The notes beneath the pieces are model-generated. The model saw only the letters and a program-made list of their open reading frames with translations, was not told the DNA's origin and made no database searches. The position numbers and the translations under genes were made by a program. DNA of 64,000 bases from Sedimentisphaerales bacterium (lineage in GTDB: Bacteria > Planctomycetota > Phycisphaerae > Sedimentisphaerales > SM23-30): contig CAXXFK010000031.1 of assembly GCA_963663965.2 (NCBI GenBank), positions 32,001 through 96,000 on the forward strand, read 5' to 3'. This document shows positions 9,949 to 29,622 of the stretch, piece by piece (position 1 is the first letter of the stretch; the number at the start of each line of letters is the position of its first letter).

Positions 9949-10083
9949 CCATGAACTATTAAATTCAAACTGGCAACTTAACGGACTCTGATCATGCGGA
10001 AATTGGGTTTAAGGGAGCCTCTAATGATTCATTAAGGTCTGCAAACGGTCTGATCTTCCTCGTTTTCGCCTTTAGAGTTACCC

Positions 10084-12382: not shown

Positions 12383-12393
12383 AGTAACCTCGG

Positions 12394-14310
12394 TTATTTT
12401 TTCAAGACAGCATGGAAGCGACAGACCTGATGGCAGCGTCCACATTTGATGCATTTTTCCTGGTCAATGATATGCGTTTCTTTGGGTCTGCCTGCGATAC
12501 AATTGACCGGGCAGTTCCGGGCGCAGAGGGTGCAACCCACGCAGGTTTCCGGATCAATCTGGTAACGGACCAGTGCGGTACATTTACACGCCGGGCAGTG
12601 TTTGTCATGGACGTGCGCCTCGTATTCCTGGCGGAAATATTTGATGGTGCTGAGGACGGGATTGGGAGCCGCCCGGCCCAGGCCGCACAACGACGTTTTC
12701 TGCACCAGTCGAGCCAGTCGTTCGAGCGTATCGATATCATCACTTTTGGCATTGCCGGAGGCGATCCGTTCAAGGATTTCCAGCATTCGGGTGGTCCCTT
12801 CGCGACAGGGCGTGCATTTGCCACAGGACTCAGACTGGGTAAACTGGAGGAAGAACTTGGCGATATCGACCATGCAATCCTCTTCATCCATAACAATCAT
12901 ACCGCCTGAGCCCATAATCGAGCCAACCGCCTGAAGGGAGTCAAAATCGACTTTGGTGTCGATAAACTCGGCAGGAATACAGCCGCCGGCCGGTCCGCCG
13001 GTCTGGATGGCTTTGAGTTTTTTGCCGCCGGGTATCCCACCGCCAACGTCAAAAACGATTTCGCGGAGAGTGGTTCCCATGGGGACCTCGATCAGGCCGG
13101 TATGGTTGATTTTTCCGGCGAGAGCAAAGACCTTGGTGCCACCGCTGTTATCGGTGCCGATTCCGGCAAACCATTCGGGACCATATTGACCGATGACCGG
13201 GATATTGGCCCAGGTTTCAACGTTGTTGATTACCGTGGGACAACCCCAGAGGCCCTTTTGGGTGGGGAAAGGCGGGCGGATACGGGGCTGGCCACGTTTG
13301 CCTTCAATCGAGTGGATGAGGGCTGTTTCTTCGCCACAGACAAACGCACCGGCGCCGAGACGGATTTCGAGATCGAAACTGAAATCGGAGCCCAAAATAT
13401 TATTACCGAGTAATTGGTGTTTTCGAGCCAGATCAATGGCGTTCTGGATGCGATTGATCGCCATGGGGTATTCTGCCCGGATGTATAAATATCCTTGTGA
13501 AGCTCCAATGGCAAAGGCGCCGATCGTCATGCCTTCGACAATGTTGAACGGATCGCCTTCCAGCATACTGCGATCCATAAATGCTCCAGGATCGCCTTCG
13601 TCCGCATTACAAATTACATATTTTTGTTCGGCTTCAACTTGTGCAGCGTTCTGCCACTTCAAGCCGGTGGGGTATCCACCACCGCCACGCCCCCGGAGTT
13701 TTGAGGCTATAATAGTATCGATAACGTCACGGGGATTATTCTTATCCAGAATTGACGCAAGGGCTTCGTAGCCGCCGGCACAGGTGTAGCCGAAAATACA
13801 TTCCGGATTAACGATCCCACTATTCCTGAGCGCGATACGTGTCTGGCGCCGGAAAAAGGCGACATCACCATATTTTTCGTAAAATCGTTGCCCAAATGGA
13901 AATGCCTGAGTTTCCTTCAGTGGAATGGTGGTAACATCCTCATCCGGAGGCTGCAACAGGTTTTCATTCAGGGGGTTTCGCTTCATGATGTGGCGAGTGA
14001 AGATTTTGTGCACCAGTTCGCGGTCAACCTTTTGATATTTGACGGGCGGTTCATCGGGAAACTGAATGCTGACAATGGGTTCACAACTGCAGCGTCCGGT
14101 GCATCCTACCTGTCGTAACAAGATATCCTGCCGGTCCGATGATTCGATATGTTTTTCCAGTTCATCAAAAACCGCACGAGCCCCAGCGGCATTTTCACAA
14201 GTAGCAGAACCTACCTGGATTTGAATCTGGTCGGGGGATTGTCGCGCGGTGCAATGCTGGCTGGCTTTTTGAAGGAACTCGCGATAACGGGTCATGATTG
14301 GTGAAGACAT
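12394..14310 (-). CDS. hydB: [FeFe]-hydrogenase diaphorase subunit (NuoF/HydB-like; FMN, NADH, Fe-S)
   Basis: N-terminal Trx-like 2Fe-2S (GCTGRC), LRGRGGGG, NADEGDPGAFMDR, GAFVCGEET, SCGKCTPCREG, C-terminal 2x4Fe-4S. Confidence 0.93.
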   Translation of the reverse strand: MSSPIMTRYREFLQKASQHCTARQSPDQIQIQVGSATCENAAGARAVFDELEKHIESSDRQDILLRQVGCTGRCSCEPIVSIQFPDEPPVKYQKVDRELVHKIFTRHIMKRNPLNENLLQPPDEDVTTIPLKETQAFPFGQRFYEKYGDVAFFRRQTRIALRNSGIVNPECIFGYTCAGGYEALASILDKNNPRDVIDTIIASKLRGRGGGGYPTGLKWQNAAQVEAEQKYVICNADEGDPGAFMDRSMLEGDPFNIVEGMTIGAFAIGASQGYLYIRAEYPMAINRIQNAIDLARKHQLLGNNILGSDFSFDLEIRLGAGAFVCGEETALIHSIEGKRGQPRIRPPFPTQKGLWGCPTVINNVETWANIPVIGQYGPEWFAGIGTDNSGGTKVFALAGKINHTGLIEVPMGTTLREIVFDVGGGIPGGKKLKAIQTGGPAGGCIPAEFIDTKVDFDSLQAVGSIMGSGGMIVMDEEDCMVDIAKFFLQFTQSESCGKCTPCREGTTRMLEILERIASGNAKSDDIDTLERLARLVQKTSLCGLGRAAPNPVLSTIKYFRQEYEAHVHDKHCPACKCTALVRYQIDPETCVGCTLCARNCPVNCIAGRPKETHIIDQEKCIKCGRCHQVCRFHAVLKK

Positions 14311-14742
14311 AGTAATATCCTACTTGCACAATACAATTTAGTCGTCCCATGGGGAATCTGGGAACCGTAATGGTAAAATCTCTCCGTTAAGAGGTATCCG
14401 CCAAACTTCGGCGAATCTTTAGTCGTAATGATTAAGATTTAAACAAATATCAGTGATTCATTTTGCCCCGAAATACAGGTGTTCTTAGCAGGGCAACAGA
14501 AACGAAGCAAGCATATAAACAATCGGCTCTGACTGATAAACTATAAGAATTTAGGCATACATAATGTAAAAATCAAATAGTAAATTGAATTTAACTTAAA
14601 TAATTAGCTGTACTTAACGTTTAACTGATATAATTAAATGTGTTTATTTTCACTATTATCGTATCCAACAGGCAAATTAAACCATAACATATTACAGTAT
14701 AATTCATTATGTAAATGTCAGGTTATAACAAGTTAGTAGTTC
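14311..14742. promoter_or_regulatory. AT-rich divergent promoter region between hydBAC and the ABC/propeller/Fe-S cluster
   Basis: 432-nt intergenic region between head-to-head genes, very AT-rich over 14550-14742, with TATAAT hexamers. Confidence 0.6.
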
Positions 14743-15423
14743 ATGCTTAAAATTAATAAATTAAATAAATCGTATGGCGATACCTCTTCCACCGATTATC
14801 AACAGGTTTTGTGTGGAGTCAATTTTGAGTTGATGACACGAGGAACTGTTGCGATCATGGGGCCATCCGGCTGTGGAAAGAGTACTTTACTAAATATTAT
14901 CGGCTGCCTGGACCGACCAGATAGCGGGTCGGTAATGCTAAACGATGTGGAACTGACCCGATTGAACGAACAAGAAATGGCCAGGATTCGTAATGAATCG
15001 ATCGGTTTCGTTTTTCAAATGCACCATCTGCTACCGCAATGCAGTGTATTGGAGAATATTTTGCTACCCGTGCTGGCCGGCAGGGTAAAACAGGTGTCTG
15101 GTGCAAGAGTTGACAGGGCATTACATCTGCTGGAACGTGTTGGTATGACGGACTATCAGAATAAGCGGCCAGGTGAGCTTTCGGGCGGACAGTGCCAGAG
15201 AACGGCTTTAGTCAGAGCCTTGATCAATCAGCCCAGATTACTGCTGGCGGATGAACCCACCGGTTCACTAGATCAGGCCAATGCTGAAACCTTAATGGAA
15301 TTATTATTGGAATTGAATCGTGAAGAAGGGACGAGTTTATTGGTGGTTACCCACGCAGAATCATTGGCCAGACACATGAATGATATCTTTCTACTCGAGA
15401 ATGGACAATTAAAATCGGCATGA
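14743..15423 (+). CDS. ABC transporter ATP-binding protein, LolD/MacB-like
   Basis: GPSGCGKST, IGFVFQMHHLL, ELSGGQCQR, LLADEPTGSLD, VVTH. Confidence 0.92.
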   Translation: MLKINKLNKSYGDTSSTDYQQVLCGVNFELMTRGTVAIMGPSGCGKSTLLNIIGCLDRPDSGSVMLNDVELTRLNEQEMARIRNESIGFVFQMHHLLPQCSVLENILLPVLAGRVKQVSGARVDRALHLLERVGMTDYQNKRPGELSGGQCQRTALVRALINQPRLLLADEPTGSLDQANAETLMELLLELNREEGTSLLVVTHAESLARHMNDIFLLENGQLKSA

Positions 15424-18400
15424 CCCTCTGGAAACTGATAAGGCAATCACTTTTCCATTACTGGCGTCCCAATCTGGGTGTCATGCTGGGAGTGGCTTTT
15501 TGTTCCGCAGTACTGGTCGGGGCATTGATGGTGGGTGATACTGTCCGAAGTACACTGAAACGGATGGTGCTGGAGCGCCTTGGTGATACCCAACTGGCTT
15601 TGGCAGGACAAGGCCGTTATGTTCGCAGTGAGTTAGCCCAGGATCTGGCGGAGTCCTTAAATGTAAAGGTTGCAGGAATCCTACAAACAGGCGGCATCGC
15701 TATTGAACCCACGCGTCAACTGCGCCTGAACCGCGTGAATGTTTATGGTGTTGACAAGGCGTTCTGGGCGATGGGATTAGAAAAGCAGGCAGTGGAGTTA
15801 GACAGTGACGAAGCTGCTATCAATGCTGTGTTTGCGCAACAACTGGGTGTCAATCCTGGTGATGACATTATTTTGAGAGTGGACAAATCTGGATTGCTAC
15901 CCCGGGAGATCCCATTCGCGGGAAAAGAAGACCAGACCGCAGCCATGCGATTACGGATAAAATGTATTCTGACAAACTCGCAGATGGGGCGATTTGGATT
16001 AAAAAATAATCAGGATGCTGTTTACAACCTGTTTGTTTCCCTTGATAGATTACAAGAAAAATCAGAGCTTCAGGGCAAAGCCAATATTATTCTAGCGGGA
16101 GAACCTGAAAAGCCGGTTGACCTGAACAGCGCCAATGAGAAATTAAGGAGATGCCTGCGCCCGGATGATCTGGAACTGAAGTTTAAAGTCCTTACAAAGG
16201 ATACGGTTCAGATACAGAGCGGGCGAGTATTTCTGGATCATATTGTTGTCGAAAACATCAAAAAGACTATACCCGAATCGTCAGGTATTCTGGCTTATTT
16301 TGTCAATTCCATTATCAGCGCCAATCATTCCACACCCTATTCGATGATTGCCGGAATTGATCATGACATGTGCCAGGATCTGGGTATCACCCTTGAACCT
16401 GATGATATAGTGGTAAGTCGCTGGCTGGCAGATGACTTGAAGGTTGAGACAGGAGATCCCATTCGCCTGAGTTACTGGGTATTGTCAGAGGATGGCAGTG
16501 GTCTGGTGGAGCAAAGTCACGAATTCAAGGTGGCCGGTATTATTACTCAGGCCGGCGACCGGGATATGATGCCGGATATGCCGGGTTTATCCGATGCCGG
16601 GAATTGCCGGGAATGGAAAGCTGGAATTCCAATCGATTTTGGCCGTATCCGTGCTGAAGATGAGGCTTATTGGGAAACCTATCGAGGCACCCCCAAGGCC
16701 CTTATCAGCCTGGAAACCGCTCAGAAGATATGGGGAAACCGATGGGGGCGGCTCACTGAAATACGTATTAAGGGGAATGATATCAACAAATTCTCGAAAA
16801 AGGTTCTTGGCGAAATCAATCCAGGAGAGCTTGGACTGCAATTCAGAGATGTCAGGGGGCCGGCGTTAGCCGGAGCATCCGGACAAACCGATTTTGGACA
16901 GCTGTTTCTGGGTATGAGTATGTTTTTAATCGGATCGGCCCTGATATTACCAGCAATGCTATTTGCCTTAACGGTTCGCGGACGGAACAAACAGATCGCC
17001 CTGCTCAGGATTATCGGCTTTGAAACCGGAACTGTCCGACAGATCATCCTGGTTGAAGCCCTGATTCTGGTTCTAGCCGGGACAGGTCTTGGACTATTAT
17101 TGGCGGGGGGGTATGCCGGAATCATTACTGCTACCCTGAATTCAAATTGGCTGGCAGTAACCGGTACGAGCGAATTGCGTCTATTTATTTCGCCACAATC
17201 AATGATCGGTGGTAGTCTGGCCAGCGTTTTAATGGGGATGGGCAGTGTATGGCTGGCATTAAGACGTGATTTTAAACGGCGCGATCTGGATATGTTACAC
17301 GGCAGAGTGGCTTATCAAGTTAAATCTTCCCGATGGAAGAAGTGGACTGGATTAATTCTAACTGGACTGGCAATTACCACGATGTTATATTCCGTTATTT
17401 CGGCAAAGGATGCTACGGAAATATTTTTCATGAGCGGCAGTCTGCTGCTGGCAGGCGGCATATTTGTGTTTTCGTGGCAGTTATCTAAAACGAATACCAC
17501 AAAACCGAACTCAATATTCAGTATGGGGCAGTTAATCTCGCGCGGCTTGCAGCGGACACCCGGACGGATTCAGGCTGTCGCTGTAATTGTTGCCTGCGGA
17601 GTTTTTATGGTGGTTGCCGTTGGATCCAGCCAAAAAAATCCATTGAAAAACTCAGAAGCGCGCAGTTCAGGAACAGGGGGTTATGCCTTACTGGCTCAGA
17701 CTACGATTCCGATATCCGTGGATCTTGACAGTCAAGAGGCCATTACCCGTTTCGCACTTGATCCAGAATTAATGCGGGATGTATCGATTCTATCCGTGCG
17801 GGTACATGAAGGTGATAATGCCGGATGCCTGAATCTGAATAAGCCGGTGAATCCGGCAATCCTGGGTATTTCGGTGGTTGAATTGGTCAAAAATAAACCA
17901 TTTACCATTGTAAAAACTGAGAAAGGGCTGAAAGCCGACTGGCAAATTCTGGAAGGGGAAGGAGCGGTTACCCCGGTAATAACTGATCAGAGCGCGATTC
18001 TCTGGTCACTGGGAAAAAAACTGGGCGACCGGATACCGTATCCTGATCAGCGTGGGGGGCAGTGTGAGCTTGAATTGGCGGGTGGATTGAATAATTCGAT
18101 TTTGCAAGGATATCTTATTATTTCGGAAGAACGTTTCAAGGAACTGTTCCCGGAAGACAGCGGATATCGGTTCTTTTTAATCGACTGTCAGCCAGATAAG
18201 ATACAGGCTTTAGAAACCATGCTGCAACGTTCACTGGCGGATGTTGGTATTGACATAGAAAGAAGTGCCGATCGATTAGGACGTCTTTATGCTTTAGAAA
18301 ACACCTATATGACAATATTTATGCAATTGGGTGGATTGGGCATGATCCTGGGAACTGTCGGAATGGCTGTGGTTGTTTTCCGTAATGTGATGGAGCGCCG

Positions 18401-18683
18401 CAGCGAACTGGCATTATTGAAGGCGGTTGGATTCACTTCGAAGAAGATTACGGCCATGCTGATTCACGAGCACAGGCTGGCATTTGGTTATGGAGTGGGA
18501 CTGGGAGCCGTATCGGCTTTGATCGCCGTATTACCGGGGATGATCGAATGGGGAAGTGGATTTCCGTGGCGGTCGATTATAACAATTCTTGTTATTATTT
18601 TAGTTTGTGGTATAATCTGGATCATGGTGGCGACCCATCTGGCATTACGCGGCCGATTGGTGGGTGCATTACGAGATGAATGA
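15420..18683 (+). CDS. FtsX/MacB-type ABC permease with two tandem halves (1087 aa)
   Basis: ATGA overlap with the ATPase gene; two large periplasmic domains, each followed by FtsX-like TM blocks (QIALLRIIGF; ERRSELALLKAVGF). Confidence 0.88.
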   Translation: MTLWKLIRQSLFHYWRPNLGVMLGVAFCSAVLVGALMVGDTVRSTLKRMVLERLGDTQLALAGQGRYVRSELAQDLAESLNVKVAGILQTGGIAIEPTRQLRLNRVNVYGVDKAFWAMGLEKQAVELDSDEAAINAVFAQQLGVNPGDDIILRVDKSGLLPREIPFAGKEDQTAAMRLRIKCILTNSQMGRFGLKNNQDAVYNLFVSLDRLQEKSELQGKANIILAGEPEKPVDLNSANEKLRRCLRPDDLELKFKVLTKDTVQIQSGRVFLDHIVVENIKKTIPESSGILAYFVNSIISANHSTPYSMIAGIDHDMCQDLGITLEPDDIVVSRWLADDLKVETGDPIRLSYWVLSEDGSGLVEQSHEFKVAGIITQAGDRDMMPDMPGLSDAGNCREWKAGIPIDFGRIRAEDEAYWETYRGTPKALISLETAQKIWGNRWGRLTEIRIKGNDINKFSKKVLGEINPGELGLQFRDVRGPALAGASGQTDFGQLFLGMSMFLIGSALILPAMLFALTVRGRNKQIALLRIIGFETGTVRQIILVEALILVLAGTGLGLLLAGGYAGIITATLNSNWLAVTGTSELRLFISPQSMIGGSLASVLMGMGSVWLALRRDFKRRDLDMLHGRVAYQVKSSRWKKWTGLILTGLAITTMLYSVISAKDATEIFFMSGSLLLAGGIFVFSWQLSKTNTTKPNSIFSMGQLISRGLQRTPGRIQAVAVIVACGVFMVVAVGSSQKNPLKNSEARSSGTGGYALLAQTTIPISVDLDSQEAITRFALDPELMRDVSILSVRVHEGDNAGCLNLNKPVNPAILGISVVELVKNKPFTIVKTEKGLKADWQILEGEGAVTPVITDQSAILWSLGKKLGDRIPYPDQRGGQCELELAGGLNNSILQGYLIISEERFKELFPEDSGYRFFLIDCQPDKIQALETMLQRSLADVGIDIERSADRLGRLYALENTYMTIFMQLGGLGMILGTVGMAVVVFRNVMERRSELALLKAVGFTSKKITAMLIHEHRLAFGYGVGLGAVSALIAVLPGMIEWGSGFPWRSIITILVIILVCGIIWIMVATHLALRGRLVGALRDE

Positions 18684-18687
18684 GGAG

Positions 18688-18716
18688 AAACCATTGACGA
18701 AATGCAATGGTTTTTT
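18688..18716 (+). terminator. Terminator-like hairpin after the ABC permease
   Basis: AAACCATTG-8 nt-CAATGGTTTTTT. Confidence 0.5.
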
Positions 18717-18787
18717 ATATAGTAATCTGTATTCATATCCGCTTGAGGCGGATGATTTTTTATGATATCTATGACTTCTGATCTCCT

Positions 18788-20200
18788 ATGAATCGACAAA
18801 ACATCGCTATTCTAATTGCCTTTGGGCTACTAACGGCGGGCTATATAACGCTGGATAGATGGGTTCTGTCTGTACCAGTTAAGTTGGAGATCAGAGAGCC
18901 AGGCGCCGATGGAATACCGGAAGGCGCTTTTGTCGAATCCGGAGAAGAGGCCTGGGAATTTAAGGGGGAATTAACCAAGGGCGATGGGAAGGCGTCCGAT
19001 ATACTAGAAAGTTGGAGTATGTTTCGGGGCGACGATTGTCAGATGTATTACGATAATTCAGCAATTGACCTGGCCCGGGAGTGGCCTGAAAACGGTCCAC
19101 CGGTTATCTGGGATATTCCGGTTGGCGATGGTTATGCTGGGGCGGCAATACGTCAAGGCAGGGTGTATTTACTGGATTATGATGAGAAAAATCAGGGGGA
19201 TGTAATCCGGTGTTTATCGCTTGATGATGGTCAAGAAATCTGGCGCTATTTTTATTCGGTCAAGGTCAAGCGGGATCATGGCATGAGCCGGACCGTACCG
19301 GCAGTAACAGATGAGTATGTTGTGACGCTTGGACCCCGAGCCCAGGTGGTCTGTTTGAAGGCGGAAACCGGCGAGTATGTCTGGCATATCGATCTGGTGA
19401 GCGCTTACGGCACCGAAGTCCCTTTATGGCACGCGGCCCAGTGTCCGGTAATCGAAGATGGCCGGGCAATTATAGCGCCGGCTGGACCCAAAGGCTTGAT
19501 GATTGCGGTGGAGTGTTCTTCAGGAGACATTGTGTGGACGGCGGCCAATCCGGATAACTGGGAGATGACCCATACCTCCATATTGCCGGTTAAGATCAAC
19601 GATCAGGCGATGTATGTCTATTGCGGCGGCGGGGGTGTGGCAGGGGTGGCCAAAGAGGATGGACATCTTTTATGGAAAAATACCGATTGGAAAATGCGTA
19701 CTAATGTACCCTCACCGCTCTACTTGGGGGAAAGCCGGTTTTATTTATGTGCCGGATATAACAAGGGAAGCATGACCATGGATGTAAAGTGGGAAGGTGA
19801 CCGCTGGCAAGCAGAAACGGTTAACCAGTTCCCGGTAAAGGTATTCGGAACCGTGCAACACAGTCCGGTGTATTACCAGGGCCATCTTTATGGAATCCGT
19901 GAAAAAGGCAAGCAATTGATATGCCTGGATCGAAATGGTGCGATCGTCTGGGAAAGCGGCAGCGCTCATACCTTTGGGGATGGACCGGTTCTGCTGGCAA
20001 ATGGATTAATTTATATTCTGGATGATGATGGCACCCTGTTTATGATAGAGGCCTCGCAGGAAGGCTATCGAGAACTGGGCCAGGCGCAGGTATTTAACGG
20101 TCATGATGCCTGGGGACCGATGGCCATGGTGGCCGGCAGATTGATATTGCGGGATTTCGATGAGATGAAGTGTCTGGATATGAGGCAAAATACGAATTGA
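18788..20200 (+). CDS. N-terminally anchored PQQ-like (BamB-type) beta-propeller protein
   Basis: N-terminal TM/signal; WSMFRGDD, GDGYAGAAIRQGRVY, SRTVPAV, AWGPMAMVAGRLILRD. Confidence 0.8.
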   Translation: MNRQNIAILIAFGLLTAGYITLDRWVLSVPVKLEIREPGADGIPEGAFVESGEEAWEFKGELTKGDGKASDILESWSMFRGDDCQMYYDNSAIDLAREWPENGPPVIWDIPVGDGYAGAAIRQGRVYLLDYDEKNQGDVIRCLSLDDGQEIWRYFYSVKVKRDHGMSRTVPAVTDEYVVTLGPRAQVVCLKAETGEYVWHIDLVSAYGTEVPLWHAAQCPVIEDGRAIIAPAGPKGLMIAVECSSGDIVWTAANPDNWEMTHTSILPVKINDQAMYVYCGGGGVAGVAKEDGHLLWKNTDWKMRTNVPSPLYLGESRFYLCAGYNKGSMTMDVKWEGDRWQAETVNQFPVKVFGTVQHSPVYYQGHLYGIREKGKQLICLDRNGAIVWESGSAHTFGDGPVLLANGLIYILDDDGTLFMIEASQEGYRELGQAQVFNGHDAWGPMAMVAGRLILRDFDEMKCLDMRQNTN

Positions 20201-20233
20201 CAAGCTGCTGACAGCCATTTTAATATTAACAAC

Positions 20234-21253
20234 ATGCAAAACACAAAAACACAACCCGTTATTATTACCATCCTGTTGGTGGCTGTGGGAGTGGGTGTTT
20301 ACTCTGCTATCACATTGGATCCCTCGGGAAGTAAAGGGAATCGTCTGGGAAACTCGTTTGAATATGATTTATCGGAAGACCGGAAAATCGCTGCGGAACT
20401 TTATGGTTTTCATCAGATAAATGCGCTAAAGGATGAACGATTTAAATGGGCGGGTGGACTGGCAATCGATCATAACAACCTTATATATATCGCTGGCAAG
20501 GAATCGATTCTGATACTGGACCGAGAATTGAAAATTTCTCGTTCACTGAAAGTTGAGAGCGGGATTCAGGCATTGACTACTGCTGAGGATGGTTCCATCT
20601 TTACCGCCGATCAAAACAGGATTCGGATTTATGGCAGGGATGGGGCATTGATACGACAGTGGCCAATAGAAGGGGATAACACCTACCTGACTTCGATCAC
20701 GGTCGGTGAGAATGATGTATTCGTTGCCGATAAAGGGCAACGAGTGGTTTGGCGATATCAGAAATCGGGTGAATTCGTCAACGAGATCGGGCGCCGGGAT
20801 GATGCGCGTAACATACCCGGCTTCAGCATTCCCAGTCCATATTTTGAAGTCGCGATTGCCGGAGATGGATTATTGAGGGTTACCAATCCGGGATCACACT
20901 GGATTGTGGCGTATACATTTGATGGCGACCGGGAATTCGCCTGGGGGGAGAGCGGCCGGTCGATAGAGGGATTCTGCGGATGTTGTAATCCATCCCATTT
21001 CGCGATTTTTCCGGATGGGCGTTTTGTGACCAGCGAGAAAGGGATTACCCGGATCAAGGTGTATAACGCGGAGGGGAAATTTGAATCGGTGGTGGCGGGT
21101 CCTGCTGAATTTATGGATCATGACGGGTTGGTCAGTGAGTTGAAAGGCGAAGCGGACCGGGTGGCGCTCGAGGTGGGGGTTACCAATGATGGAGAAGTGG
21201 TTGTGCTGGATCCATTGGTGGGTGAAGTGAGGATTTTTGCCGAGAAAAAATAG
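20234..21253 (+). CDS. NHL-repeat/6-bladed beta-propeller protein with a CGCC motif
   Basis: N-terminal TM; GLAID..IYIA, VFVADKG, LRVTNPG, GFCGCCNPSHFAIFPDGRFVTSEKG. Confidence 0.75.
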   Translation: MQNTKTQPVIITILLVAVGVGVYSAITLDPSGSKGNRLGNSFEYDLSEDRKIAAELYGFHQINALKDERFKWAGGLAIDHNNLIYIAGKESILILDRELKISRSLKVESGIQALTTAEDGSIFTADQNRIRIYGRDGALIRQWPIEGDNTYLTSITVGENDVFVADKGQRVVWRYQKSGEFVNEIGRRDDARNIPGFSIPSPYFEVAIAGDGLLRVTNPGSHWIVAYTFDGDREFAWGESGRSIEGFCGCCNPSHFAIFPDGRFVTSEKGITRIKVYNAEGKFESVVAGPAEFMDHDGLVSELKGEADRVALEVGVTNDGEVVVLDPLVGEVRIFAEKK

Positions 21254-21303
21254 TATGCTAAAATAGGGTTTCGCAATAAGCGAAATTTTTAGAGAGAATT
21301 GCC

Positions 21304-21879
21304 ATGAATCTAAAAGAGACAAAACCAATTATTGATCGCCGAGCCTGGTTAAAGACCATGGTTCGGAGCGGCTGTTTTGTGGGGCTGGCCGGATTAGGCT
21401 GGCGCGCGACCAGTATGGCAGGTTCCGATCAACTGGTCTGGCAGATCGATCCATTGAAATGCATTTCCTGTGGCAATTGCGCAACCTACTGCGTATTGAA
21501 AGAGTCAGCAGTAAAATGTGTGCACAATCATGAAATGTGCGGCTATTGCAATCTTTGTACCGGTTATTATAAATCAGAACCGCAGGAACTGGATACGGCG
21601 GCAGAGAATCAGATGTGCCCGACCGGCGCGATCATCCGCAGATTTGTAGAAAAACCGTATTTTGAATATAACATTGATGAGGCTCTCTGCATTGGTTGCG
21701 GCAAATGTGTCAAGGGCTGCAATGCATTTGGAAATGGTTCATTATTTTTACAAGTGAGACATGATCGTTGTCTGAACTGTAACCAATGCGCGATCGCGGA
21801 GTCTTGTCCGGCGGATGCTTTTCGGCGGGTACCGGCTCACAATCCTTATATCAAGAAAGGATTCGACAAGACGGAATGA
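21304..21879 (+). CDS. Tat-exported polyferredoxin (4x[4Fe-4S], NapG/MauM-like architecture)
   Basis: DRRAWLK plus a hydrophobic stretch; CISCGNC, CGYCNLC, CIGCGKC, CLNCNQC. Confidence 0.8.
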   Translation: MNLKETKPIIDRRAWLKTMVRSGCFVGLAGLGWRATSMAGSDQLVWQIDPLKCISCGNCATYCVLKESAVKCVHNHEMCGYCNLCTGYYKSEPQELDTAAENQMCPTGAIIRRFVEKPYFEYNIDEALCIGCGKCVKGCNAFGNGSLFLQVRHDRCLNCNQCAIAESCPADAFRRVPAHNPYIKKGFDKTE

Positions 21880-23174
21880 AAAAGCGATTGGTCCTGTTAT
21901 TGAGCCTGATATTGCTGAGCATCCTTTTCAGCGGGCTGTTCGCCGTGCAGAATTTTCCACCACCGGAATTTGAATCGGATTATCAAATGCCGATTCTGAC
22001 ATTGATGGAGCAGGGTCGGGCCAGTGTCAGCTGGGCGGATGTCGTGATTATGGCCGTGGCGTTGGCAATCACCAGCTGGCTGGTATTGAAAAAACGTTCT
22101 CGACAGGGAATCTGGCTGGTGATGATATTTTCGCTGGTTTACTTTGGATTCTGGAAAAAAGGATGTATCTGTCCCATCGGAGCCATTCAGAATATGGCGT
22201 TGGGCCTGTTTAGTGACGGATACGCGGTCCCCCTTACGGTGATTATTATTTTTTTGTTGCCGCTGGTATTTGCCCTGTTTTCGGGACGGGTGTTTTGCGC
22301 CGGAGTCTGTCCGTTGGGCGCGATCCAGGATGTGGTTGCGTTTTTCCCGATCCAGATTCCGATGTGGCTGGAAAAGGTCTTGCAGGCCATCGCGTGGTTG
22401 TATCTAACCCTGGCCATTCTGTTGGCGGCGATGGGCAGTGGATTTATAATTTGCCGTTATGATCCATTTGTTCCCTTCTTTCGCATGTCTGGCAGTTTTC
22501 AGATCTTATTGCTGGGGGGGGCATTGCTGGTTGTCGGTTTATTTGTGGCCAGGCCCTATTGCCGGTTTTTGTGCCCCTATGGTGTATTACTTGGCTGGCT
22601 GTCGAAAGTATCCAGACGCCATTTAACCATCACTCCCAGAGATTGTATTCAGTGCCGCCTGTGTGAGGACAGTTGTCCATTTAACGCTATCGAAAAACCG
22701 CTTAATTATTCATCGTCCCAGGTATCGGCCAGAGCGCGGATACGATTGATTCTGGCAGTCCTGTCAGTGCCTGTTCTGGCGTTGCTGCTGGGGTGGGCGG
22801 GACGCGGCCTTTCGGGCAAGCTGTCACAGAGTCATTACTGGGTCAGGCTGGCTCAAGAGTATCGTTTGGAAGAAATGGGGGTGGTCACTGAGCCATCCGA
22901 TATGACGGACGCATTTCGAACCACTGGATGGACGCGCGATCAGCTTTATGAGAAGGCAGAAACCATCCGTCAGGGATTTGACCGGGGGTGCCGTTGGGCT
23001 GGAATATTGCTTGGAATCGCCCTGGGGATACGACTGGTACGGATGCAGGTTTACGACCGGCATGATGATTACCGGGCGGAAGCGGGGCGTTGTTTATCGT
23101 GTGGACGATGTCTGGAGTATTGTCCGGTGGGCCGGGCTGATGAAACTGTGGTGTTTCGAACTTGTAATCCATGA
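21876..23174 (+). CDS. Membrane 4Fe-4S-binding protein, NapH/MauN/RdxA-like
   Basis: Start at ATG 21876 (ATGA overlap); multiple TMs; CICPIG, FCAGVCPLG, YCRFLCPYG, CIQCRLCEDSCP, CLSCGRCLEYCP. Confidence 0.85.
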   Translation: MKKRLVLLLSLILLSILFSGLFAVQNFPPPEFESDYQMPILTLMEQGRASVSWADVVIMAVALAITSWLVLKKRSRQGIWLVMIFSLVYFGFWKKGCICPIGAIQNMALGLFSDGYAVPLTVIIIFLLPLVFALFSGRVFCAGVCPLGAIQDVVAFFPIQIPMWLEKVLQAIAWLYLTLAILLAAMGSGFIICRYDPFVPFFRMSGSFQILLLGGALLVVGLFVARPYCRFLCPYGVLLGWLSKVSRRHLTITPRDCIQCRLCEDSCPFNAIEKPLNYSSSQVSARARIRLILAVLSVPVLALLLGWAGRGLSGKLSQSHYWVRLAQEYRLEEMGVVTEPSDMTDAFRTTGWTRDQLYEKAETIRQGFDRGCRWAGILLGIALGIRLVRMQVYDRHDDYRAEAGRCLSCGRCLEYCPVGRADETVVFRTCNP

Positions 23175-23202
23175 ATACCCATAGAGAGAGACGGATATTG
23201 CT

Positions 23203-24975
23203 ATGACTGATAATCAAGAGGAAAATAAACAGGACCGTGGTCTCTGGTATCAGGTCTGTTTGAACCTGGCGATTGTTGCCGGGGTTCTGATGATTGGGGC
23301 CCTTTTTGTGCTGGCGCGCGACTGGAGTCCAACGATGACCGCCAGTACTATCGATTCGGAGGTAATTGAGTCGCTGCGCAAGGAACTGGCTGATCATCCT
23401 GATAATATGGCGTTGCGGGAGAGGGTGCGGTCTTATGACCGGGAGTTGCGGGAGGTGTTTTTTACGCAACAACAACGGGCCAAGCGGGCTGGCATATTTC
23501 TGGTATTTTGCGGGGGCATACTGGCTTTGACAATGAAATATGTGATCGATCAGAATACCGCCCTGCCGATGCCGCAGGGCAAGCATGATTCCACCCGTTA
23601 TGGGTTTAAAAACGCCATGGCCGGACACGCCTTTGTGCTGGTGGCAGTGAGTGTGGTGGTATTTATGGCGGTGCGCCCGAATCCCGCGCCGACTCTGCCC
23701 GGGGCCGAATCTACTGTTAGCAGTGCCCCGGGAGATGATACCATTAGTCAAGAAGAACAGCCTGTTGCCAAGCTGACCCAGGTGGTCTGGCCGGATAAGG
23801 AGCAGTTCAAGAAAAACTGGTATCGATTCAGAGGGCCGGGAGGTTCGGGGATATCGCCGTGGGATAATGTTCCACTCACGTGGAATATCGAAAGTGGTGA
23901 GAATATTTTATGGAAACTCCCCATTGAAATGCCGGGGAATAACTCGCCAGTGATCTGGGAAAATCTGCTTTTTTTCAGTTGCGCCGATGAAACGCAGCGA
24001 ATTGTTTATGCGGTCGATTGTGTCAAGGGTGACTATCTCTGGCAAACGGCTATTGTCGTTCCCGGAGGGCCGGAGGAAGCGCCGGAGGTTATGGAAGAGA
24101 CCGGCTTTGCCGCGCCTACGTGTGCGACGGATGATCAACGAGTCTATGCCATGTTTGCCAACGGTGATGTGGCGGCAGTGGGACATGACGGAGCCATCGT
24201 CTGGGCGAAGAACCTGGGAATCCCTGAGAGTACCTATGGTCATTCGGCTTCGCTGGAATTATATCAGGGATTACTGCTGATTCAATTCGATCAGGGATAT
24301 GAAGATGAGGAGAAATCAAAGGTATTTGCCCTGGATGTGTTAACGGGCAAAGTGATCTGGTCACATACCAGGCCGGTAGCCAATCAGTGGTCCAGTCCGA
24401 TTGTGGCCCATACCGGGGGGCGGGATCAGTTTATTACAATATCCAATCCGTGGGCGATTGCCTACGAGCCTTTGAAGGGCGAGGTGCTCTGGCAATCCAA
24501 ATGTCTGGCGGGTGATGTGGCGCCCTCGCCAGTCTGCGCGAATGACCTGGTATATCTGATTACTCCTTATGAGGCTGTCAGGGCTTATAAAACCGATGGT
24601 CAGGGTGATGTCACCGAGACAAAGCTGGCCTGGGAAGGGATGGATAATATCGGTGATACCTGTTCACCTCTGACAAATGGCGTCTATCTCTATCTATTGT
24701 ATGGTATGGATCTGGTGTGTTATAAAGCGGATAACGGTGAAGTGCTGTGGACACATTCTTTTGATAATGAATATACTTCATCCCCATCTTTAGTGGGCGA
24801 CAAACTACTGTTAATGGATATAGAAGGTGAGGTGGCCATGGTTAAGGTGGGGGATGAATTTGCCCTGGATCATACTGGTCATCTGGGTGAACCGGTATTT
24901 ACCTGTCCAGCATTTGCGGATGGGAAAATTTTTGTGCGTTGCGATAAACAAATCATAGCCATAGGAGTGAAATGA
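23203..24975 (+). CDS. Membrane protein (about 3 TMs) with a C-terminal PQQ-like beta-propeller
   Basis: Three hydrophobic segments, a Pro/Ser linker, then WYRFRGPGG, GNNSPVIW, FAAPTCATD, YGHSAS, WSSPIV and PAFADGKIFVR. Confidence 0.8.
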   Translation: MTDNQEENKQDRGLWYQVCLNLAIVAGVLMIGALFVLARDWSPTMTASTIDSEVIESLRKELADHPDNMALRERVRSYDRELREVFFTQQQRAKRAGIFLVFCGGILALTMKYVIDQNTALPMPQGKHDSTRYGFKNAMAGHAFVLVAVSVVVFMAVRPNPAPTLPGAESTVSSAPGDDTISQEEQPVAKLTQVVWPDKEQFKKNWYRFRGPGGSGISPWDNVPLTWNIESGENILWKLPIEMPGNNSPVIWENLLFFSCADETQRIVYAVDCVKGDYLWQTAIVVPGGPEEAPEVMEETGFAAPTCATDDQRVYAMFANGDVAAVGHDGAIVWAKNLGIPESTYGHSASLELYQGLLLIQFDQGYEDEEKSKVFALDVLTGKVIWSHTRPVANQWSSPIVAHTGGRDQFITISNPWAIAYEPLKGEVLWQSKCLAGDVAPSPVCANDLVYLITPYEAVRAYKTDGQGDVTETKLAWEGMDNIGDTCSPLTNGVYLYLLYGMDLVCYKADNGEVLWTHSFDNEYTSSPSLVGDKLLLMDIEGEVAMVKVGDEFALDHTGHLGEPVFTCPAFADGKIFVRCDKQIIAIGVK

Positions 24976-27323
24976 GCGTAATCGATTTAAAGCCGGTAGA
25001 TCAGATACTTGACCAGATTGGCCGGGAACCCCATAAATTAATTCCGATATTGCAGGCGGTACAGACACAATATGGATACCTGCCTCAAGAGGCACTGGAA
25101 TCGATATGTGGGCGGACCACCATAACGCCGAGCCAAATAATGGGGGTCAGTACTTTTTACAGTCAATTTCGCTTTAAACCAGTCGGTCAGCACATTGTAC
25201 GCTTATGTAACGGTACGGCATGTCATGTTAAAGGCGCCGAAAAGGTATATCAGTCATTGCGACGCGTACTGGCGATTCCGGAGGGGGATGACACTGATCC
25301 GCAAGGTGTGTTTACAGTTGAGAAGGTGGCATGCCTGGGATGTTGTACTTTGGCTCCAGCTGTACAGATCGATGAAATTACTTATGGCCATCAGACCCCG
25401 GAATCAGTGGAGCGGATGCTAAGCGATTTTATGAATGCCAGCAAAAAAACCGGACGTGGAAGAAAGGGAATCGGTCTGACTCAGTTTGCAGGTCAGGATG
25501 GCGAGATTCGCATCGGCTTGGGTTCCTGTTGTCAGGCGCGCGGCAGTGGCCTATTACATCAATCCTTGTTACAATCCGTTGAGGATTTAAAGATTCGGGC
25601 GACCATCAAATCCGTGGGTTGCGTGGGTATGTGCCACCAAACTCCTCTGGTAGAAATTGTCAAACCGGATGGACGCAGTTTTCTTTACGCCCAAGTTGAA
25701 CCCAAGGATGCCAGGGGGATACTGGAACGGCATTTCGAACAGGATGATCTGATTATACGCTGGGGGCACAAGGCAGCCAACTGGCTGGACAGCCTGATCG
25801 AGGCCCGGCCCCATGAGCCCGTGACGCGCTATTCGATTGATGTCCGTGATAAGCCCGTTAAAGCATTTCTGGATAAGCAGATCAATATCGCCACGGAACA
25901 TTGCGGCAATATCAGTCCGGTTGATTTGTCTGAATATTTGCATAAGGGTGGCTTTAACGCGTTGAAAAAGTGTTTAACAGGCATGGATCCAGATCAGGTG
26001 ATTGAGTTTATCCGGGAAAGCGGATTACGGGGCCGGGGCGGGGCCGGCTTTTTGACGGGTCAAAAATGGCGACTGGTACAGCTGACGAAAGATGATCTGA
26101 AATACATTGTCTGCAACGGCGATGAAGGGGATCCGGGCGCATTTATGGACCGGATGCTACTGGAATCGTATCCCTTGCGGGTATTGGAGGGTATGATCAT
26201 TGCGGCGTGGGCAGTGGGGGCACATCAAGGATATCTCTATATCCGCGCGGAATATCCATTGGCAGTCAAGCGGGTGCGTGAAGCGCTGGCTGTTTGTTAT
26301 GAACATGGGTATCTAGGCAAAGATATTCTGGGCAGTGGATTTGATCTGGATCTACAGATCATGGAGGGGGCCGGCGCATTTGTCTGTGGTGAAGAGACGG
26401 CCCTGCTGGCATCAATTGAAGGTCAGCGCGGGATGCCCCGATTCCGGCCTCCCTATCCGGCAGAAAAGGGATTGTTTGGCAAGCCTACGCTGGTGAATAA
26501 TGTTGAAACCTTTTGTACGGTTTCCTGGATTATCCGTCAGGGTGCGGAAGCGTTTGGCCGGTTGGGAACATCGAGCAGTGCCGGCGCCAAAGTATTTGCG
26601 CTGGCAGGCAAAGTGGCCCGTGGCGGTTTAATCGAAGTACCAATGGGAATAACAATCAAAGAGATTGTTGAAGAAATTGGAGGCGGCGTGGCCGATGGAC
26701 GTACATTTAAAGCAGTACAGATCGGGGGGCCTTCTGGAGGATGTATTCCCGCTTCAATGTCACATCTGGGAGTCGATTATGAAGAGTTGGCACACGCGGG
26801 AGCGATTATGGGATCGGGAGGTCTGGTGGTTCTGGATGATACGGATTGTATGGTGGATATTGCCCGGTATTTTCTGGAATTTACTCAGGATCAATCCTGC
26901 GGTAAATGCACGCCCTGCCGGATCGGAACCCGACGCATGCTAGAGATTCTGGAACGGTTATGTCAGGGGACAGCCAGCCGCTCTGATCTGGATGAGCTAA
27001 AAGAGTTGGCAATATCAATTAAGCGATCCAGTTTATGCGGACTGGGACAAACGGCCCCCAATCCGGTGTTATCAACCCTGGAATTTTTCGGTGATGAATA
27101 TGAAGCGCATCTTGAGGGGCGTTGTCCGGCAGGGAAATGCACAGCCCTGATTACCTATTCAATCAATGACCGCTGTATCGGCTGTACCTTATGCGCTCAG
27201 CATTGCCCTGTAAACGCAATTAAAATGAAACCTTATGAGCGCCATATCATCGATATCCGGACCTGTATCCGCTGTGGCGGATGTAAAACGATATGTCCGG
27301 TTGATGCCGTGGAGGTGAAATAG
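24972..27323 (+). CDS. Fused NuoE + Trx-like 2Fe-2S + NuoF diaphorase (HydC-HydB-like fusion)
   Basis: CNGTACHVKG/CLGCCTLAP; GSCC..GCVGMC; LRGRGGAG, NGDEGDPGAFMDR, GGPSGG, SCGKCTPCRIG; C-terminal 2x4Fe-4S; ATGA overlap with the upstream gene. Confidence 0.92.
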   Translation: MSVIDLKPVDQILDQIGREPHKLIPILQAVQTQYGYLPQEALESICGRTTITPSQIMGVSTFYSQFRFKPVGQHIVRLCNGTACHVKGAEKVYQSLRRVLAIPEGDDTDPQGVFTVEKVACLGCCTLAPAVQIDEITYGHQTPESVERMLSDFMNASKKTGRGRKGIGLTQFAGQDGEIRIGLGSCCQARGSGLLHQSLLQSVEDLKIRATIKSVGCVGMCHQTPLVEIVKPDGRSFLYAQVEPKDARGILERHFEQDDLIIRWGHKAANWLDSLIEARPHEPVTRYSIDVRDKPVKAFLDKQINIATEHCGNISPVDLSEYLHKGGFNALKKCLTGMDPDQVIEFIRESGLRGRGGAGFLTGQKWRLVQLTKDDLKYIVCNGDEGDPGAFMDRMLLESYPLRVLEGMIIAAWAVGAHQGYLYIRAEYPLAVKRVREALAVCYEHGYLGKDILGSGFDLDLQIMEGAGAFVCGEETALLASIEGQRGMPRFRPPYPAEKGLFGKPTLVNNVETFCTVSWIIRQGAEAFGRLGTSSSAGAKVFALAGKVARGGLIEVPMGITIKEIVEEIGGGVADGRTFKAVQIGGPSGGCIPASMSHLGVDYEELAHAGAIMGSGGLVVLDDTDCMVDIARYFLEFTQDQSCGKCTPCRIGTRRMLEILERLCQGTASRSDLDELKELAISIKRSSLCGLGQTAPNPVLSTLEFFGDEYEAHLEGRCPAGKCTALITYSINDRCIGCTLCAQHCPVNAIKMKPYERHIIDIRTCIRCGGCKTICPVDAVEVK

Positions 27324-28883
27324 ATGGTGCAGATAACCCTAGATGATCGAACAGTCACTATCGAAGCCGGGGCGACCATTCTGGATGCGGCCAGGAAGGC
27401 TGGAGTCCATATTCCAACACTCTGTTATCTGGAAGACTGTCAACCTCAAACCTCCTGTATGGTCTGTGTCGTTCGTTTGGAACCGGGCGGTAAACTAGTC
27501 CCGGCGTGCGCCTATCCGGTGAGCGATGGACTCCGGGTGAGCAGTGAAGTCGATGAGGTTTTAACCATCCGCAAACGCAATCTGGAACTCCTGTTGAGTG
27601 AACACCTGGGCGATTGTGAAGGGCCCTGTACCTCGGCCTGCCCCGCCGGTATGCAGATTCCGTTGATGATTCGACAGATTGCTACTGGTGATCTGGAAGG
27701 GGCAATTAAAACGATTAAACGAGATATTCCTTTACCGGCGATTTTAGGTCGAATCTGTCCGGCGCCTTGTGAGGGTATCTGCCGGCGGAAATATCACGAT
27801 GAGGCATTGGCTATCTGCCAACTGAAACGATTTGTCGCCGATTGGGATTTGGCTAATGAGCAGCCATATTTGCCAGAAATCCATGGCGATTCCGGTAAAA
27901 AGGTTGCAATAGTGGGTACCGGACCGGCCGGATTATCCGGAGCCTGGTTTTTACGGACCATGGGACATTCCTGTCAGGTTTTTGAAGAACAGGATCGTCC
28001 TGGCGGACGGCTTTATGAATCCGGAACTGACAGATTATCAGAAGAGACCGTACTGGCTGAAATCCGGGTCATTGAATCACTAGGTTGTTCCATACAGTTG
28101 AATACAAAAATTGGCAGAGACATCACATTAGAAAATTTACGAAGGCAGTATGATGCGGTTTTAATCGCCACAGGAGATGGACACCTGGATGGGCTGGTAT
28201 ACCATGATACAGGATTGAAGGTTGACATGAAAACCATGCAAACCAGCCTGGAAGGTGTATTCGCAGCAGGCAATGTGATACGCAAGGGACGAATCGCCAT
28301 TCGATCCATAGGCCAGGCTAAAAACGCAACCAGATCCATTGACAATTATCTGAGGGGTGATAAACAAGATGGCTTGAGAGAAGCGTTTACATGTCATATT
28401 GGGAAAATTCGAGATGAAGAAATCAGGACGTTTGCAGATGCAGCATCCCAAAGAGGAAGGGTATTGACAAAAGAACAAAAATACGAGGCATTGACCAAAG
28501 AACAAAGCGCCTGGGAGGCCCAGCGGTGTCTGAGATGCGATTGTCGAAAAGCGAGTGATTGCCGGTTACGCCAGGTATGCCAGGATTATGAGATTATGGC
28601 CCCTAAACTTAAAGATAACAGGCCAGCATTCGAACAAGCTATTCAAATAAACAGTAAAAATGCCCGTAAAGTGGTTTATGAAAAGGGTAAATGTATACGA
28701 TGCGGGCTATGTGTTCAGATTACAACTCGAGAGGAAGAGCGCTATGGCTTGTCCTTTACGGGTAGAGGATTTGAAGCGTTTATCGCCGTGCCGCTTGATC
28801 ATAGCTTGGATGAGGCGTTAACCCGTTCGGCCGAAGCTTGTGTAAGAGCCTGCCCGACTGCCGCGTTGGCATTTCTTGAATAG
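27324..28883 (+). CDS. Fe-S flavoprotein: HydA/NuoG N-terminal Fe-S module with an inserted, internally deleted GltD-like domain
   Basis: IPTLC..SCMVC..PAC (2Fe-2S); EHLGDC; PCTSACP, GRICPAPCEGICRR; VAIVGTGPAG; GVFAAGN; CLRCDCRKASDC; CIRCGLC..CVRACPTAAL. Confidence 0.85.
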   Translation: MVQITLDDRTVTIEAGATILDAARKAGVHIPTLCYLEDCQPQTSCMVCVVRLEPGGKLVPACAYPVSDGLRVSSEVDEVLTIRKRNLELLLSEHLGDCEGPCTSACPAGMQIPLMIRQIATGDLEGAIKTIKRDIPLPAILGRICPAPCEGICRRKYHDEALAICQLKRFVADWDLANEQPYLPEIHGDSGKKVAIVGTGPAGLSGAWFLRTMGHSCQVFEEQDRPGGRLYESGTDRLSEETVLAEIRVIESLGCSIQLNTKIGRDITLENLRRQYDAVLIATGDGHLDGLVYHDTGLKVDMKTMQTSLEGVFAAGNVIRKGRIAIRSIGQAKNATRSIDNYLRGDKQDGLREAFTCHIGKIRDEEIRTFADAASQRGRVLTKEQKYEALTKEQSAWEAQRCLRCDCRKASDCRLRQVCQDYEIMAPKLKDNRPAFEQAIQINSKNARKVVYEKGKCIRCGLCVQITTREEERYGLSFTGRGFEAFIAVPLDHSLDEALTRSAEACVRACPTAALAFLE

Positions 28884-28926
28884 AAAAACCTGGTATACCC
28901 GATTCGATGGCAGATGTTTAAATTCC

Positions 28927-28955
28927 TTGACAGGGAGTTAGTTTATTATTAGAAT
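28927..28955 (+). promoter_or_regulatory. sigma70 promoter upstream of accBC
   Basis: TTGACA-17 nt-TAGAAT. Confidence 0.75.
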
Positions 28956-28965
28956 TTCGCTCAAT

Positions 28966-29065
28966 TTGGCATTTACTGCAAAAAGCCAATCGCGCCCTAA
29001 CTGCTTTATTTTACAGTAGATAATTTACGCAACGCTGTAAAAAGATGAAAAGCAGTCAGTTGGGC
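28966..29065 (+). ncRNA. Candidate structured leader RNA or sRNA upstream of accB
   Basis: TTGGC/GCCAA hairpin followed by a long imperfect stem (GCCC/GGGC, ACTGCTTT/AAAGCAGT, TTTTACAG/CTGTAAAA) directly after the promoter. Confidence 0.35.
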
Positions 29066-29151
29066 TTGTGTAAAATCAGAAATTATTGACAGCTATTGAA
29101 ATGACTTGATATTGATTTTCAATGCACATATCAATGCAGGAGACTGAGCTG

Positions 29152-29622
29152 ATGGATATTGATAAAATCAAGGATTTGATGGAAATGATGAAGGCCAACG
29201 ACCTGAGCGAACTGGAAGTCGTTGATGGTCAGACTCGTATTGTGTTGAAGCGTAGCCGGGAAGCGAATGGCGTGCCAGTGGTCGTCCATTCATCTGTTAG
29301 TCCAGTAGCGGTTCCTTCTGCTCAAGTTTCATCTGCGGCCATGCCGGCAACACCAGAAACTCCCAAACAGCCGGCGGCAAATTTATTAGAAATCAAATCG
29401 CCGATCGTCGGTACCTTTTATACCTCGCCCAGCCCCAATGCGGATCCATTTGTCAAAGTTGGCCAGCATGTGGATGACGAAACAGTCGTCTGTATTGTAG
29501 AAGCGATGAAAGTCATGAACGAGGTGAAAGCAGAAGTAAGAGGAACCATCAAAAAAGTATTAACCTCGAACGGACAAGCCGTTGAATTTGGACAACCTCT
29601 ATTTCTGGTTGAACCGGATTAA
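29152..29622 (+). CDS. accB: Acetyl-CoA carboxylase biotin carboxyl carrier protein
   Basis: [23 protein letters not shown] biotinylation motif, VEFGQPLF. Confidence 0.95.

Follow-up and report, generated by a model that had tools for sequence, protein, structure and literature searches.

On the forward (+) strand of a contig from a Sedimentisphaerales bacterium (CAXXFK010000031.1, assembly GCA_963663965.2), nine genes at positions 14743..28883 of the 64,000-nucleotide stretch analyzed here (the window) bring together an ATP-binding cassette (ABC) transporter pair, three propeller proteins, an NapGH-like iron-sulfur pair, and a two-gene core of Bfu type. The cluster is real and widespread, and it is an apparently undescribed Bfu variant whose third partner would span the membrane. 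An earlier interpretation made from the letters alone (the sequence-only reading) had described nine co-oriented open reading frames (ORFs), with ATGA overlaps at 15420, 21876, and 24972 and abutting genes 8 and 9 (27323/27324); all of these are present, and the remaining intergenic gaps measure 104, 33, 50, and 28 bp. Profile scans of the window proteins used Pfam and NCBIfam, with bit scores quoted against NCBIfam family cut-offs. They agree with the earlier domain calls except for two labels, an NHL "CGCC" motif and a "HydA-N/GltD chimera," which needed correction as described below. As the same reading had held, the cluster has no recognizable catalytic subunit: no gene scores above the cut-off of any named catalytic family in Pfam or NCBIfam.

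Genes 1 (14743..15423) and 2 (15420..18683) putatively encode a LolD/MacB-like ABC ATPase (PF00005; 244 bits to TIGR02211, cut-off 308) and a 1087-residue double FtsX/MacB-type permease (PF02687 twice, PF12704). Two membrane-anchored propellers follow: gene 3 (P0; 18788..20200), an eight-bladed pyrroloquinoline quinone (PQQ)/BamB-type protein with a candidate ligand or metal site, and gene 4 (20234..21253), a six-bladed NHL protein with vicinal Cys250-Cys251 in a GCCNP motif. Their models have mean confidence scores (pLDDT) of 90.9 and 94.8, respectively. Gene 5 (21304..21879) encodes a putative twin-arginine 4x[4Fe-4S] polyferredoxin, gene 6 (21876..23174) a membrane iron-sulfur protein of the NapH/NosR family (PF12801; 53.8 bits to TIGR02163, cut-off 213), and gene 7 (P1; 23203..24975) a PQQ-type propeller (PF13360) apparently anchored by three transmembrane segments. 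The run ends with gene 8 (24972..27323), a putative BfuC-BfuB fusion, and gene 9 (27324..28883), a putative BfuA. No Rfam family matched across window positions 9900-29200, and promoter and terminator scans gave counts only slightly above those in shuffled sequence (33 versus 22.9 and 21 versus 12.9) and were not used.

Conservation and co-occurrence of the core genes

The sequence-only reading had proposed a search for gene-neighborhood conservation, and seeding it on the NHL protein showed that the core genes co-occur in conserved order across phyla. A degenerate DNA pattern for the NHL motif gave at least 120 matches in GTDB genomes; locus counts refer to the 80 NHL loci with flanks (40 matches without flanks were left out), and per-gene counts to those loci with enough contig around the NHL gene. 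The seven-gene redox core is complete in 33/80 loci from nine phyla by genome label, where single metagenome-assembled genomes may be mis-binned: Planctomycetota, Verrucomicrobiota, Bacteroidota, Chloroflexota, Calditrichota, Acidobacteriota, Armatimonadota, Spirochaetota, and Desulfobacterota. The ferredoxin gene lies in the same locus as the NHL gene in 67/73 cases, the NapH-like gene in 66/71, P0 in 63/75, P1 in 57/64, gene 8 in 43/56, gene 9 in 38/53, and the permease gene in only 13/57. Gene order is that of the window in nearly all loci, and its conservation across phyla excludes a chance arrangement.

Presence was also scored in 22 relatives at least 90% complete, with E cut-offs that we set at 1e-20, 1e-40, 1e-60, and 1e-90 for genes 5, 6, 9, and 3, respectively. 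All four genes were present in the same 12 relatives and missed in the same 10. In three genomes (G004, G019, and G023) the core genes are scattered over the chromosome, yet all are retained in single copy. Where P0 was absent from a locus it was recovered elsewhere in the genome in 5/5 cases; gene 9, absent from distant loci, was recovered elsewhere in 4/5 and then at full strength in 2/5 more, and the permease was found in the genomes of 5/5 distant carriers. Weighing against a single unit, gene 9 was not found in 3/10 partial-locus genomes (completeness not given), with weaker partial matches in one more, and because kin are not independent the presence pattern overstates the number of events. 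Despite this kinship, the all-or-none pattern argues for one functional unit, and we consider it very probable that all core genes belong to one linked system.

Some loci carry additional genes. In one (L108:1153-3030), a 626-amino-acid ORF is inserted between genes 8 and 9; we take its YVRYVDD motif to be reverse-transcriptase-like. Near the cluster in L079, L047, L050, L035, L033, and L095 there is a squalene-cyclase-like repeat protein, a small ferredoxin-domain protein, or both, each found in four loci; the two are also encoded about 4 kb apart on contig C11 of the host genome (G000, 94.6% complete).

Cytoplasmic, membrane, and periplasmic modules

The best PDB matches of gene 8 are the NfnB chains 9bov_B, 9n5u_B, and 8oh5_B, and its Pfam matches include a flavin mononucleotide (FMN) domain and Fer4 (PF01512, PF10589, Fer4); the only NCBIfam cut-offs it passes are those of NuoE-type models. 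Across 52 aligned rows, the putative ligands of clusters B1, B3, and B4 (C643/646/649/689, C735-745, and C765-775) are present in at least 98%, GDPGAFM and GGPSGG are conserved, and the GLGSC motif of the B5 domain is the same as in 9bov_B. The fused BfuC part has invariant C79, C84, C121, and C125 for the C1 [2Fe-2S] cluster. The B2 site, matched to PMC9304861 by spacing and by the 9bov_B alignment, comprises C626 (52/52), C664 (42/52), and H713, C718, and C723 (51/52 each); according to the available text of that survey, its His occurs only in bifurcating BfuB. With BfuB, BfuC, the B2 His, and clusters A1 and A2 all present, genes 8 and 9 are Bfu family members by sequence criteria.

Gene 9, earlier labeled a HydA-N/GltD chimera, is better described as an NfnA-type BfuA with its NADP-binding domain deleted. 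Residues 1-285 and 292-514 align to 9bov_A 3-287 and 448-670, with 27 residues where NfnA has the 179-189 of the NADP-binding domain; the protein stops at the equivalent of residue ~670/1178, so the ~500-residue C-terminal Fdh-like domain is absent too. Among near-full-length homologues (partial sequences were left out of this count), the NADP-binding domain is missing in 40/42; in two verrucomicrobial members (L072 and L090) it persists as a 178-residue insert carrying GGGNTAMD and YRRT. The A1 and A2 residues C34/45/48/62 and C457/460/463 are invariant, and C510 is 98% conserved. The flavin adenine dinucleotide (FAD) fold retains GxGxxG and D/E221 in 42/42 and the Asp of the GD motif, presumably a contributor to FAD binding, in 13/42; a 350-residue spirochete homologue (L105:16588-17637) is missing the entire FAD domain and retains the Fe-S motifs. 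Gene 9 also keeps the ligands of the A7-A6-A3-A2-A1 path described in PMC11829005; the K168 ligand is present in 33/42, and A4 is lost.

Trees of gene 9 were built with the insert columns removed (FastTree, 76 rows; IQ-TREE, a 32-row subset), and the outgroup was hand-picked, 24 (12 in the subset) of 120 listed longer homologues. The family is monophyletic and branches among NfnA sequences; within it, the two members with the NADP domain form the sister group of all those without it (FastTree 1.0 and IQ-TREE 100/100 for both). This topology points to recruitment of an NfnABC into the cluster, followed by a single loss of NADP binding. The loss fits a membrane chain that became the third partner, since a chain that replaced ferredoxin would still require NADP binding. 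In three fusion proteins (P0276-P0278), a hydrophobic segment links gene 9 to a propeller. Two NADP-less gene 9 homologues (P0274 and P0275) are fused to a PF01208 UroD-like domain.

In gene 5, 16 Cys and R12 are invariant and R13 is present in at least 90% of 81 rows; a 17th Cys occurs in 93%, and 4/6 rows without it have a Cys three positions on. The best PDB match is 9mqx_E (E 3.7e-9), and the NapG model scores 19.5 bits against a cut-off of 269. These features predict a 4x[4Fe-4S] subunit exported by the twin-arginine (Tat) system. Gene 6 has two CX3CP motifs (C141/C145 and C229/C233), two [4Fe-4S] motifs (C257-267 and C406-416) split by a transmembrane hairpin, and three further invariant Cys (C97, C99, and C193), which hydropathy and loop charge would place on the outer side. 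We counted eight hydrophobic windows plus one read by eye, and the membrane part had no sequence match among PDB structures. The outer-side Cys are not unique to gene 6, as similar ones occur in a distant NapH-like paralogue encoded in G000.

NapH-family proteins serve extracytosolic oxidoreductases, according to the available portions of PMC8238504, PMC5928378, and PMC3475470; the latter two describe NapH as a quinol oxidase, and the part of PMC5928378 at hand assigns no function to its CX3CP motifs. Neither of the two menaquinone marker genes tested, mqnC and menB, was found in 8/12 carriers of the cluster, including the single-contig genomes G004 and G031, nor in G000.

The first Cys of the "CGCC" motif named by the sequence-only reading is variable, whereas CCNP is universal (131/131 rows of the alignment). 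In gene 4, C250, C251, N252, and P253 are invariant, and T266, E268, R273, and K275 are conserved; its model has an NHL fold for which a fold search returned no close solved relative, with lactonases among the neighbors. In P0, H164, R168, Q218, C219, H262, and W442 are present in 71/71 rows and M260 and Q357 in 70/71. These residues sit in loops just before the inner strands, and quinoproteins bind their cofactor on this same face. Judged from blade register, the His, Cys, and Met residues would gather in one site. Polar residues at 95% conservation number 24 in P0, whereas the four remaining propeller families have 12, 5, 8, and 13, a comparison limited by the families' differing divergence and depth; they appear to single out P0 among the propellers. 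P1 has no Cys or His at 95% conservation.

The fold neighbors of P0 are YxaL, Rv3035, BamB, and tetrathionate hydrolase, and its PQQ-type relatives include alcohol dehydrogenases; across the propellers, fold searches gave generic propeller neighbors only, and the Atlas look-alikes were uncharacterized clusters. Scores were 20.4 and 26.4 bits for the quinoprotein dehydrogenase model TIGR03075 (cut-off 480) and 44.6 and 49.6 bits for the BamB model TIGR03300 (cut-off 285). A search for pqqC gave no match in G000, but the control likewise matched 0/14 genomes. Because of the invariant residues, it is plausible that the propellers hold the terminal chemistry.

ORFs of all loci were clustered to find recurring families, which revealed a GT4-fold gene in 19 loci together with further propeller families accompanying the cluster; orthologues lie elsewhere in G000. 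Its product has the motif [FY]CxNC in 18/19, and the first Glu of EX7E, which we take to be the GT4 motif, is missing in nearly all matches listed. Both this gene (11/12) and the permease (12/12) occur in the high-quality carriers, and both also occur in G007, a 99% complete genome in which a P3 propeller, the GT4-fold gene, and the permease lie together (L158, G007:C23) and the redox genes were not found. Since this trio stands without redox genes, the accessory module (GT4-fold protein, BamB-like propeller, and ABC pair) is linked to the core but separable. The ABC pair travels with this sub-module of GT4-fold protein and BamB-like propeller, which G007 retains without redox genes, and its suggested role in loading the propellers therefore stays a guess. 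The GT4 ORF of that trio, at 666 amino acids, exceeds the usual length.

Upstream of the cluster by 432 bp, on the - strand at window positions 10110-14310, lies a complete group A HydABC [FeFe]-hydrogenase (NF040763 above cut-off), which goes unmentioned in the sequence-only reading. We ruled it out as a missing catalytic unit and treat it as a neighbor: it is divergently oriented, and no HydABC lay beside the cluster in any of 17 regions fetched from relatives, where hydA/B/C matches were genes 8 and 9 themselves. The 3' end of hydC is apparently frameshifted near 10140, with a typical-looking C-terminus running on in another frame, and looks like a sequencing error or a broken gene. Elsewhere in G000, contigs C1, C10, and C41 carry three more HydB/NuoF-like modules, two of them adjoining full-length HydA-like genes. 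Window positions 7906-9948 (+) encode a phosphonate-type substrate-binding domain fused to a PQQ-like propeller that is, by best match, no orthologue of P0-P4. At 2-892 (-), an ORF running off the window start presumably encodes, from its motifs, an ApbE-like flavin transferase; no flavinylation target was seen in the cluster.

A proposed electron route and its alternatives

The sequence-only reading inferred a cytoplasm-to-periplasm electron conduit. That idea is supported in part. Four observations strongly support a functional link among the genes of the three compartments (cytoplasm, membrane, and periplasm): their conserved order, their all-or-none presence, the lost NADP domain, and the existence of carriers in which no menaquinone marker was found. 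Terminal chemistry on the propellers is plausible, and the outward direction is a proposal. We judge direct wiring of the Bfu core to the membrane to be likely and, given such wiring, outward flow to be fairly probable, because of the NapGH, NosR, and RdhC precedents and by reasoning from the membrane potential. The combined proposal, a Bfu-derived transmembrane system sending electrons outward to periplasmic propellers, has in our estimation slightly less than an even chance of being right. With potentials of about -280 mV for NADH and about -500 mV for ferredoxin, as given in the available text of PMC9304861, genes 8 and 9 would accept electrons from two donors, NADH at FMN and reduced ferredoxin at B3/B4, and combine them at about -390 mV. 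From there, the gene 9 A-branch (A1-A2-A3-A6-A7, possibly including a residual FAD) would feed the cytoplasmic 2x[4Fe-4S] domain of gene 6 rather than NADP. Electrons would cross the membrane via Cys-ligated sites of gene 6, without quinone, to exported gene 5 and end at the NHL Cys-Cys pair and/or the P0 His/Cys/Met pocket, where a periplasmic acceptor, most likely a disulfide, a sulfur species, or a metal site, would be reduced. The ABC pair, the GT4-fold protein, and the further propeller would supply or assemble a component. The observations themselves comprise the gene content and order, the co-occurrence, the ligand residues, and the domain loss; bifurcation, direct contact, quinone independence, direction, and acceptor are all points that we infer.

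A more specific version, which we put forward tentatively and think somewhat doubtful, is that a quinone-free, heme-free, Cys-ligated chain wires the Bfu core across the membrane to propellers that form a new class of periplasmic redox enzyme, with a GT4-made, ABC-exported cofactor or substrate. C97, C99, and C193 of gene 6, possibly with the 17th Cys of gene 5, would form this membrane chain. If true, bacteria from nine or more phyla would dispose of electrons, or take them up, by an unrecognized route.

Several observations count against an outward, quinone-free route. The sequence itself gives no direction of electron flow, no catalytic family was recognized for any propeller, and most of the nearest P0 folds belong to proteins that are not redox enzymes. 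A menaquinone marker is present in 4/12 carriers, and G000 has three UbiA-family genes. In five NADP-less gene 9 relatives (P0269-P0273), the same chain includes a second, complete GltD that has an NADP motif, so a separate NADP-binding partner could act in trans. G000 yielded TatA but no TatC; TatC is present in 22/22 high-quality relatives, and same-family relatives match it in two pieces, mostly in one frame, which suggests an internal insertion. Given TatA and the relatives, we judged the TatC gap a probable assembly gap and set it aside as evidence against export.

Electrons could instead flow inward: the propellers would oxidize a periplasmic donor of low potential, namely an aldose or aldehyde derived from polysaccharide breakdown, and the electrons would be split by the Bfu core between NAD+ and ferredoxin. 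The alcohol dehydrogenases and lactonases among the propeller relatives favor this, as does the best match of gene 5, since 9mqx, which we take to be an aldehyde-oxidizing Wor-Bfu, also gives BfuA- and BfuB-like chains. NapH-like proteins are also found with an alcohol oxidase, according to the accessible part of PMC8238504. Nonetheless, we regard inward flow as unlikely: the quinoprotein family scores reach about 20-26 bits against 480. On general grounds, the potential of PQQ is too high for it to reduce NAD+ or ferredoxin, and electrons moving inward would work against the membrane potential. A quite unlikely explanation is a maturation or envelope machine, in which the cluster supplies low-flux reductant for a metal or organic cofactor, or for a GT4-made, ABC-exported glycoconjugate, as in nos or mau. 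The GT4-fold gene and permease in most or all carriers and the several further propellers fit this role, but no other biosynthetic family recurs in the 20-kb loci, the first Glu of EX7E is nearly always missing, and the G007 trio lacks redox genes.

We also weighed whether the cluster comprises two co-regulated halves without a direct Bfu-membrane complex, linked only by a diffusible carrier (ferredoxin, flavodoxin, or quinone) or by a separate NADP-binding GltD. Persistence of the genes when dispersed, NADP-binding GltD regained in cis in P0269-P0273, other GltD-like genes in G000, and the FAD-binding GxGxxG retained throughout the family all accord with such halves. The arrangement is nevertheless decidedly unlikely, as no carrier or GltD gene recurs in the loci, 8/12 carriers are without either menaquinone marker, and gene 9-propeller fusions exist. 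Finally, genes 8 and 9, whose best PDB matches are NfnABC chains (with the NADP domain kept in 2/42 gene 9 homologues), could be an ordinary NfnABC transhydrogenase next to unrelated membrane and propeller genes. This is highly improbable, since the NADP domain is absent here and in 40/42 homologues and order and co-occurrence hold across phyla.

Novelty and comparison with known systems

The sequence-only reading knew of no characterized system with this gene set, and we found no description of it in the literature searched, which did not extend to most subscription papers. The available text of PMC8238504 does not mention propeller, PQQ, or NHL, and one supplementary file of PMC9304861 contains none of six genus names. 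The 1558-sequence BfuB table of that survey may already list members under Nfn clade 53 or the unassigned clades 1-17. As far as its accessible text goes, the survey leaves 17 clades with no assigned third substrate, and the only membrane members it lists are of hydrogenase and complex I type; the cluster would add a widespread candidate Bfu with a transmembrane Fe-S chain as third partner. It also makes visible an evolutionary step, the capture of NfnABC followed by loss of NADP binding. The role of the cytoplasmic clusters and CX3CP motifs of the NapH family becomes testable, because a cytoplasmic donor is encoded alongside and many hosts apparently lack menaquinone. Furthermore, the cluster offers a handle on many "PQQ-like" propellers of planctomycetes and Bacteroidota.

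Nfn-Bfu (NfnABC/StnABC), the type 1 Bfu transhydrogenase (PDB 9bov, 8oh5, and 9n5u), has the same BfuB/BfuC core ligands and a BfuA in which, as in gene 9, A1, A2, A3, A6, A7, and the FAD-fold half occur; gene 9 also branches among NfnA. In the cluster, however, BfuB and BfuC form one fusion protein; BfuA is without the NADP domain, A4, and the Fdh-like domain; and the Bfu genes are always accompanied by membrane and periplasmic genes. By its sequence, the cluster fails the defining NADP feature of Nfn-Bfu. The predicted Mbh-Bfu and Nuo-Bfu (PMC9304861) likewise encode a Bfu core with a membrane module as third partner, but in those types the arm in or at the membrane is that of a hydrogenase or of complex I, whereas the module here is NapGH-like and would end in the periplasm. 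No Bfu type with an NapGH-like module was found in the available material of that paper, whose main text is without "PQQ" or "propeller."

NapGH, NosGH, MauMN, NosR, and RdhC share with the cluster a twin-arginine 4x[4Fe-4S] protein and a membrane protein with two CX3CP motifs and 2x[4Fe-4S]. Gene 6 differs in having about seven transmembrane segments after a signal segment, versus four in NapH, and in its extra outer-side Cys. Scores fall far below the NapGH cut-offs, there is no NapA (no such family among the recurring neighbors in the loci), NosZ, or reductive dehalogenase, and many hosts lack the menaquinone markers. The cluster probably works like NapGH but is no orthologue of it.

In overall layout the clade II nos cluster is the same, with a propeller (NosZ), a GH pair, and an ABC transporter (NosDFY). 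Here, however, there is no NosZ, the ABC is of MacB/FtsX type, and electrons would come from a Bfu core; two His are invariant in P0, versus the seven of CuZ. PQQ quinoprotein dehydrogenases, the "acido-empty quinoproteins" (TIGR04528), BamB, and tetrathionate hydrolase have the same eight-bladed propeller fold as P0, which scores far below their cut-offs, is 13-20% identical to them, and carries a distinct invariant His/Cys/Met/Gln set.

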